Positions 19,481-20,469 of a DNA stretch of 43,137 nucleotides are shown here, piece after piece (within the stretch, counting starts at the first letter, position 1; every line of letters starts with the position of its first letter). This DNA is from a virus. Its lineage: Duplodnaviria > Heunggongvirae > Uroviricota > Caudoviricetes. The position numbers and the translations under genes are program-made. Location of the stretch: IMG/VR virus record IMGVR_UViG_2541047960_000005. One strand, written 5' to 3'. The notes below the pieces were generated by a model that had not been told where the DNA came from, searched no databases, and was given only the letters and a program-made list of their open reading frames with translations.

Positions 19481-19969
19481 ATGAAGAAAAAATACGAACT
19501 GGTTGTTAAAGGGATAAATAATTACCCGGATAAGATTACTGTTACTGTGGTACTGGAAATTGGTGGGTATCCGTCACTGTTGTTGCCAAATGTGGCGATT
19601 AGTCTTGACCGTACTGAAGGTGCCACGCTGGAGTTTTACGAAGCTGAGGCGAAAAAGCAGGCGAAGCAGTTTTTCATGGATGTTGCTGCCGGGTTATGTG
19701 AAGGGGATGAGCAGTCGCCGGAAAAGCGCCCCGTAATTTTAGAGGCGCAGGATGTGTTGATAATCTACAAAGGAAAGCTACCGGGAAGAATTACTGATGC
19801 TCTGAAGATGCCGCCGTCAACACTGCGGTCAGAAAAAGATGATGTTGAATCACGTATTGAAAAACTGGAGCGCTATATCGCTGAATTGAAAAAAAGCGCC
19901 CCAACAAAAAATGAGGTGCTTGCAGCAGATGAAATGAAAGAAGCTATTCTTGATCGCGCGGGCATCTAA
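19481..19969 (+). CDS. hypothetical protein inserted between holin and endolysin (X)
   Basis: ATG 19481 five nt after the holin stop; 162 aa with a charged coiled-coil-like C-terminus; AT-richer than flanking lysis genes. Confidence 0.55.
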   Translation: MKKKYELVVKGINNYPDKITVTVVLEIGGYPSLLLPNVAISLDRTEGATLEFYEAEAKKQAKQFFMDVAAGLCEGDEQSPEKRPVILEAQDVLIIYKGKLPGRITDALKMPPSTLRSEKDDVESRIEKLERYIAELKKSAPTKNEVLAADEMKEAILDRAGI

Positions 19970-19983
19970 GCTGCGCTTCACGA

Positions 19984-20469
19984 TTGAAAGAGCATCTTCA
20001 GCGGCCTGAAGAAAAACGCCGCGATGAGCAGTTTGCTGCGTTTGACGATTATTGTCGGAAAGTGATGAGCAGAAATCTCGCAGAGTGTTTCAGTATTCAT
20101 AATGATAATTTCAGTGAGCTGGAATGGGAGTGTAACCGGCCATCCTTTGTTGTATCCGGTGATGCTGGGAAAATAACCATCTCAGAAAATGGGAAAGTAA
20201 CACCTCCATCGCACCAGCACAGTGAGGAGCTCATTGAATTTGCCATTGATTACCTGAAGAACAATAAAAAGCAGGGGCTGATGAAGCGCGTTGGCCGTTG
20301 CATGGGATATCTTCAGGTAGCCGCTGAGATTGAAGCGCTGGCCAGTGGTGCTGATAAGGATGCAATTGTGCGGGAGGCTCTTCTTCGTGATTTTAATACT
20401 CCACCCTTTAAAAAAGTGCCGGCTTACTGGCTTCATCCGGGGCTGACTTATCTTAAAGTGCGTATTTAG
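19984..20469 (+). CDS. hypothetical protein inserted between holin and endolysin (Y)
   Basis: ORF-track frame with TTG start 15 nt after X; alternative ATG at 20065; 161 aa with 5 Cys. Confidence 0.5.
   Translation: MKEHLQRPEEKRRDEQFAAFDDYCRKVMSRNLAECFSIHNDNFSELEWECNRPSFVVSGDAGKITISENGKVTPPSHQHSEELIEFAIDYLKNNKKQGLMKRVGRCMGYLQVAAEIEALASGADKDAIVREALLRDFNTPPFKKVPAYWLHPGLTYLKVRI

Follow-up and report, generated by a model that had tools for sequence, protein, structure and literature searches.

The two open reading frames X and Y, which lie between the holin gene S and the lysozyme gene R of a prophage, together make up, as judged from sequence comparison, a single catalogued prophage gene that belongs to the YdfR/DUF1327 family and has been divided in two by a single-base deletion. 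The DNA concerned (43,137 nucleotides from a member of the Caudoviricetes, IMG/VR record IMGVR_UViG_2541047960_000005) is referred to below as the window. The best explanation of the observations as a whole, which we regard as highly probable, is a single long-form YdfR/DUF1327 gene that carries a deletion in its linker, occupies a polymorphic slot, is coupled to S and belongs to the late operon. Because this is the split of a common catalogued gene, the arrangement is an ordinary one, namely an already catalogued prophage gene with a frameshift, and the copy in the window is one more frameshifted allele. The features of the region are the following.

19261 to 19476, plus strand: holin S, class II (S21-type), matching PF04971 at 1.9e-32
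19481 to 20469, plus strand: frameshifted long-form YdfR-family gene, 329 codons when intact, 97% match to BCI50300
19481 to 19969, plus strand: ORF X, 162 aa, ATG start, comprising the DUF1327 N-terminal domain (residues ~1-75), a disordered linker, the first coiled helices, two out-of-frame residues and the stop
19889 to 19895, plus strand: A7 tract in the linker (TTG AAA AAA AGC), A6 and frameshifted in locus L011
19958 to 19963, plus strand: site of the 1-base deletion as placed by alignments, GCGG[C]GCATC in in-frame relatives and GCGGGCATC in the window
19984 to 20469, plus strand: ORF Y, 161 aa, TTG start, no Shine-Dalgarno sequence, comprising the last linker helix and the conserved C-terminal domain, in a frame that is open only from 19954
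20009 to 20016, plus strand: AAGAAAAA, the interrupted counterpart of an A8 tract that shows A7 and A9 frameshifts in other alleles
20506 to 21039, plus strand: lysozyme R, matching PF00959 at 2.4e-24, with an Ala/Gly-rich hydrophobic N-terminus that is SAR-like by sequence

The initial annotation had described two ORFs of about 160 aa located between a phage-21-type holin and a lysozyme, and lower in GC than their flanks. This description is accurate: ORFs of 162 and 161 aa are present, PF04971 lies upstream and PF00959 downstream, and the GC content is 0.45 for X and 0.465 for Y versus 0.546 for S and 0.545 for R. The holin, which is 79% identical to K-12 EssQ, has dual in-frame starts (ATG 19261 and ATG 19270, MYQM...); the hydropathy of the lysozyme peaks at 1.74, at residue 9, and Rz/Rz1 follow 3' of it. 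The ATG of X stands 4 nt past the stop codon of S and is preceded, 9 nt upstream, by GGAG. An Rfam search of 19481-20469 found no RNA family inside, and a promoter and terminator scan of the same gene returned nothing convincing.

ORF X was found to match the Pfam family PF07041 (DUF1327) over residues 1-100 with 144.7 bits (cut-off 25, E 1e-42), and the earlier statement that no motif is recognisable must accordingly be withdrawn for X. Y alone gave no Pfam, NCBIfam or PADLOC match, and the NCBIfam search gave nothing meaningful. The relation between the two ORFs emerges from the profile phrog_1085 (296 positions), of which X covers positions 1-151 and Y positions 140-296 in collinear order; no single protein of the window spans the whole profile, the sequence being distributed over two frames. 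In the Stx2a phage Stx2_95 the interval between holin and endolysin is filled by a single 990-nt CDS of 329 codons (BCI50300 in LC567838); NCBI 'YdfR family protein' clusters of this length also exist. The 989 nt of the window align with this CDS from end to end at 97% nucleotide identity, and the sole gap is one nucleotide at alignment column 482, corresponding to window position ~19961-19962. The two phages share the same gene in the same slot, but the copy of Stx2_95 is intact at 990 nt while that of the window is one base short near 19961, which is why the window reads as 162 + 161 aa. The collinearity on phrog_1085, the single CDS of Stx2_95 and the 1-nt gap replace the two genes of the initial annotation, whose reading as a two-gene cassette had the raw sequence alone as its basis, with one gene.

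The recurrence of the allele in hundreds of assemblies led us to reject a sequencing error as the source of the frameshift. The same deletion, with the same pair of 162- and 161-aa ORFs, is found in E. coli CE10 (L005) and in the IMG/VR loci L072-L074; proteins identical to Y are encoded on 326 contigs, one identical to X is known from E. coli UMEA 3899-1, and 14 complete E. coli genomes contain a stretch of the same 989-nt length with 99.0-99.4% identity to that of the window. The frameshift is real and inherited; that the allele is found on 326 contigs may be due to clonal descent and need not mean that the break is tolerated. The in-frame form is also well represented: 329-aa ORFs are present in L001, in L007 and in 11 IMG/VR loci, a 329-aa cluster has 648 members, and a single exact sequence of this length occurs on 64 contigs. 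It should be noted that the NCBI pipeline labels codons 1-112 of every long copy in L005-L012 as 'YdfR family protein, incomplete, missing C-terminus', even where the 329-codon ORF is intact (e.g. L007 601-1590); on intact copies this label is apparently an artefact of the short family model.

Other alleles of the gene are broken as well, mostly in the linker A7/A8 tracts. The A8 tract has become A9 in L006 and L009 and A7 in L008 and in L012, which retains GCGGCGCATC at the deletion site of the window; the second tract is reduced from A7 to A6 in L011, and L010 has lost 2 nt in GCAGAGTG. All five independent breaks among the first ten alleles compared fall in the linker (alignment columns 409-604), and in the IMG/VR loci L032, L036 and L037 breaks lie close to the 5' or 3' end. 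The 251-nt linker region was compared with its best 60 matches in complete genomes: the length is in frame in 45, and differs by -1 in 8, by +1 in 6 and by -2 in 1. In IMG/VR, copies were counted in a sample of holin-to-lysozyme intervals; the loci are not phylogenetically independent, and the counts therefore describe the sample and are not rates: the 329-aa type was intact in 11 cases and broken or shortened in 10, the 296-aa type (L039-L066 and L086) intact in 28 and broken or shortened in none, and the 185-aa type intact in 20 and broken or shortened in 4. The 296-aa type is devoid of the linker segment that bears the A7 and A8 tracts.

This pattern recalls a switch, in which replication slippage (phase variation), transcriptional slippage or -1 frameshifting would provide both a short and a long product. 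A8, A7 and A9 alleles of one tract do coexist in different complete genomes, as do A7 and A6 at the second tract; the intact allele, whose 0 frame is GAA AAA AAA CGC, holds the heptamer A AAA AAA, and the A7 allele gives A AAA AAC, at which, as read from the sequences, a -1 slip would restore the frame. Furthermore, the Salmonella-type homologue (~30% identity) is likewise split at an A6 tract of its linker, and the breaks in 10 of 21 IMG/VR copies of the 329-aa type may be set beside their absence from the 28 copies of the tract-free 296-aa type. However, these loci are not phylogenetically independent, and some of the alleles may be homopolymer errors of long-read assemblies. A7/A8 tracts are also not unusual, since 24 runs of at least 7 identical bases occur in the 43-kb window. 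As to the window itself, its break is not at a homopolymer and its A8 tract is interrupted. X and Y are in different reading frames that overlap by 16 nt (19954-19969), and in this overlap, which reads TCGCGCGGGCATCTAA, no slippery heptamer X XXY YYZ of the dnaX/IS3 type was found; the nearest A7 tract (19889-19895) is separated from the Y frame by the TGA at 19951-19953. Programmed frameshifting was rejected for the window because the overlap has no slippery site, and we consider it extremely unlikely that the frameshifts constitute a switch at all.

The slot in which the gene resides, directly after the S21-type holin of lambdoid prophages, is a polymorphic accessory site and a frequent exchange point for few modules. 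Nothing occupies it in Ayreon or in P13374, a phage whose holin is 100% identical and whose S and R are just 4 nt apart. K-12 Qin (essQ-ydfR-rrrQ) and BP-4795 have a short YdfR (103-114 aa) there; elsewhere fused long forms of 268 (phage 86), 287, 296 and 328-333 aa are present, or DUF1327 joined to unrelated C-termini (211 and 305 aa). In other E. coli prophages the same slot contains, 4 nt after the holin, a stand-alone gene composed of coil and C-terminal domain, either in a 185-aa form directly after the holin or in a 213-aa version which, in one arrangement, is followed, not preceded, by a 75-aa DUF1327 gene. These stand-alone proteins (MNHEEMNQRF...) resemble Y, with which they share coil and C-terminal domain at 72-94% identity; unlike the gene of the window, they have their own ATG and their own N-terminal coil, and no DUF1327. 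The order holin-slot-lysozyme is common to the window, K-12 Qin, BP-4795, phage 86 and Stx2_95, and the order S-X/Y-R in the window is that expected for the YdfR family.

In the phage collection, the holin was found in 427 records, DUF1327 in 101 and the C-terminal domain in 5, so DUF1327 is absent from 326 of the 427 holin-bearing records. A survey of 5426 complete E. coli genomes gave matches to some portion of the stretch in 3148, and to 80% or more of it in 491. The notion that S and R are normally adjacent is therefore correct for P13374 and Ayreon, but not for the 101 holin records with DUF1327, nor for K-12 Qin with its essQ-ydfR-rrrQ order. Homologous prophages do routinely carry the gene in this place, as a variable accessory and not as a core lysis component. 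The suggestion of an acquired accessory co-expressed at lysis is in keeping with the low GC, the empty slots and the coupling to S in the late operon, but what was acquired is one broken gene rather than a cassette.

The position between S and R, which recurs in K-12 Qin and in many Stx phages, together with the translational coupling to S, could point to a lysis regulator, i.e. an antiholin or lysis-timing factor of the S21/SAR-endolysin cassette, as the initial annotation had proposed; a genome-wide screen cited in PMC13232886 also placed ydfR among envelope-integrity genes. Nevertheless, neither property of an antiholin was observed. No segment of transmembrane strength is present: the maximal 19-residue Kyte-Doolittle value, which reaches 1.70 in S and 1.74 in R, is 1.31 in X and 0.75 in Y. 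A signal sequence is likewise missing, and constant co-occurrence with the cognate holin is contradicted by the gene missing in 326 of 427 holin records, i.e. three quarters of holin-bearing phages, including P13374 with its 100% identical holin. In addition, S already has its own dual start, the Salmonella-type homologue is located upstream of a different holin, outside the holin-endolysin interval, and overexpression of K-12 ydfR brings about no growth defect. A role in lysis regulation thus appears very improbable.

The second proposal of the initial annotation, a defence or anti-defence cassette, becomes that of a superinfection-related accessory gene in a late-operon hot spot when applied to a single gene. 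It is in line with the variable presence, the modular mosaic architecture, the GC lower than in the flanks and the narrow taxonomic range of the gene, and the same prophage bears other host-interaction accessory genes (TolA_C, TonB_C, porin). However, neither X nor Y nor the intact 329-aa protein matched any model of PADLOC-DB 2.0 at E <= 1, and neither an enzymatic or sensor motif nor a similar fold was recognised. Moreover, a gene expressed from the late operon is not active in the lysogen, and defence by a resident prophage is less plausible for this reason. Such a function is quite unlikely.

Several other features of the same prophage were recorded in the course of this analysis. Just after tRNA-Met and tRNA-Arg (15154-15315), where Stx phages carry stx, a 142-aa ORF (15594-16022, plus strand) matches the TolA C-terminal domain (PF06519, 3.8e-23); it could be an accessory gene interfering with Tol-dependent colicin or phage entry. 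The STnc100 sRNA (16192-16398, plus strand; 162 bits in Rfam) is placed between this ORF and a SASA esterase, and a general porin (13242-14384, minus strand; Porin_1, 8e-151) lies on the opposite strand, upstream of the late region. In the early region, isrK and a C4 antisense RNA (6563-6639 and 6664-6751, plus strand) were, like STnc100, identified by Rfam above the gathering score. The R-Rz interval is a second variable slot of the lysis cassette, which in other phages holds ant or a methylase; in the window it contains a terminator-like hairpin with a 14-pair stem (21130-21162, plus strand) and, 3' of it, a 50-aa ORF (21222-21374, plus strand) that matches phrog_4493. Directly after Rz/Rz1, a 113-aa ORF (22167-22508, plus strand) combines a lipoprotein-like N-terminus with a TonB_C domain (PF03544 at 1.4e-14), and a 108-aa TonB_C gene is present at the equivalent place in L016.

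As predicted by modelling and supported by its conservation, the C-terminal part of the intact protein is a real, constrained domain of ~110 residues, whose fold matches none known. A first AF2 run with 18 close homologues was poor (pLDDT 51.6), and the mean pLDDT rose to 70.3 when Salmonella homologues were added. In the resulting model, residues 1-73 form three strands and a long helix (pLDDT 72-93), residues 73-116 are disordered, residues 120-206 are helical with moderate confidence, and residues 220-329 form three short strands and four helices (pLDDT 82-96). Columns conserved at 90% or more across genera are H247, I256, L259, G272, R273, L278, Q279, A281, A282, E283, L302, P309, K311, W317, P320, G321, Y324 and L325; they suggest no metal site and no obvious catalytic set. 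Fold searches with the predicted structure gave no significant match, and a PDB sequence search with the intact protein gave a chance match only (E 0.45). The remote-homology and structure comparisons envisaged at the outset have assigned X to a catalogued family (Pfam DUF1327, NCBI 'YdfR family protein', PHROG 1085), but have yielded no fold match. A resemblance of the N-terminal domain to the strand-strand-strand-helix cores of levivirus coat and RAD52/ERF-type proteins recurred below significance, and was set aside as a lead only.

The C-terminal domain is limited to prophages of Escherichia, Shigella and Salmonella. A profile search with the C-terminal module retrieved 36 cluster representatives among 1.84 billion, the distant matches being from Salmonella enterica (~30% identity) and also provided with a DUF1327-like N-terminal domain; a one-genome-per-species scan found 3 loci in 185,579 species representatives, all of them Escherichia or Shigella. 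One distant X/Y homologue, in a Salmonella-type prophage from IMG/VR (L107, 3001-3782), is situated upstream of a different, 101-aa holin and not between holin and endolysin; it is split into ORFs of 118 and 158 aa at an A6 tract (3283-3288), where A7 would give a single ORF.

Pairwise pN/pS values, all based on small counts, were 0-0.28 for the C-terminal domain, 0.09-1.3 for the linker and 0.23-1.14 for the N-terminal domain, and the comparison of the window with the intact L007 gave, again with small counts, 0 non-synonymous and 4 synonymous differences in the C-terminal domain. Purifying selection on this domain would also fit continued expression of Y, and could be taken to mean that X and Y act as two separate genes, the break lying between modules and Y being re-initiated after the X stop (19967-19969), which precedes the TTG of Y by 15 nt. 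The occurrence in the same slot of stand-alone C-terminal-module genes (185/213 aa) and of short DUF1327 genes agrees with this possibility, as do the location in the linker of all five independent breaks among the first ten alleles and the presence of the allele on 326 contigs. On the other hand, Y has a TTG start and no Shine-Dalgarno sequence before it, whereas the natural stand-alone genes begin with their own ATG 4 nt after the holin and with a coil that is missing from Y. Because the breaks are at slippage-prone sequences (A7, A8, AGAG, GCGGCG), their position may reflect the origin of the mutations rather than selective tolerance, and the breaks near the gene ends in L032, L036 and L037 lie outside the linker. 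Two separately acting genes are hence unlikely.

We infer the expression and function of the gene, unlike its identity, split and slot, which were established by the comparisons made here. Its translation would be coupled to that of S, and its transcript would be that of the late/lysis operon. The intact protein would consist of an N-terminal DUF1327 domain, a low-complexity coiled linker and a conserved C-terminal domain, whereas ordinary translation of the window allele would yield X, i.e. a complete DUF1327 domain with part of the linker, similar to the natural short YdfR proteins of 103-114 aa. Having only a TTG start and no ribosome-binding site, Y is probably made weakly, perhaps by weak re-initiation, or not at all.

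Clues to function come from K-12 YdfR (b1555, cryptic prophage Qin), the only member of the family for which published experiments were found, none having been found for the protein of the window or for any long form. X resembles it in the DUF1327 domain, with 45% identity over residues 1-74, and the synteny essQ-ydfR-rrrQ-rzpQ of Qin matches that of the window; K-12 YdfR differs from the gene of the window in having only 103 aa, without the long linker or the C-terminal domain. Residues 1-72 of K-12 YdfR bind RNase E 1-597 in a two-hybrid assay, RNase E 1-598 is recovered with the tagged protein in pull-downs, and DNase-resistant nucleic acid, taken as RNA, co-purifies with it, while overproduction of K-12 YdfR hardly changes the transcriptome and causes no growth defect (PMC13232886). 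The region of identity between X and K-12 YdfR covers the mapped RNase E-binding region, and binding of X to RNase E 1-597/598 is a possibility suggested by this homology.

From the identity of X to K-12 YdfR and the position in the late operon, a role connected with RNase E or RNA may tentatively be proposed: the product could possibly be a cytoplasmic late protein whose N-terminal domain attaches to RNA and/or the catalytic half of RNase E and changes late RNA turnover; the C-terminal domain, for its part, would act as an effector or binding module that can be separated from the rest. T4 Srd and T7 gp0.7 are phage cytoplasmic proteins that bind RNase E and change RNA decay during infection. 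The cytoplasmic phage protein Dip of phiKZ likewise changes RNA decay, by binding the C-terminal scaffold of RNase E (PMC4980113). The likeness of YdfR to Dip would be in purpose only, YdfR being reported on the catalytic half and Dip on the C-terminal scaffold, and no likeness in sequence or fold was found between long YdfR and these RNase E-targeting proteins (Dip, Srd, gp0.7). A more elaborate and highly doubtful version would make long YdfR a two-module effector, in which DUF1327 would anchor the protein to RNA or to the catalytic half of RNase E and bring in a C-terminal domain of unseen fold, which also exists as a gene of its own, and in which the linker A-tracts would switch between short and long forms in prophage populations or in single transcripts.

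As far as annotation is concerned, the two-gene reading of this region is corrected to one broken gene. What remains of interest is the family as a whole: a widely distributed late protein of two modules, in which the C-terminal domain is separable and of unrecognised fold and the linker has been broken at A-tracts again and again. Modules of this slot are present in more than half of complete E. coli genomes, and given the reported binding of RNase E by the N-terminal domain, the family can be tested cheaply as a candidate modulator of host RNA decay in temperate phages.
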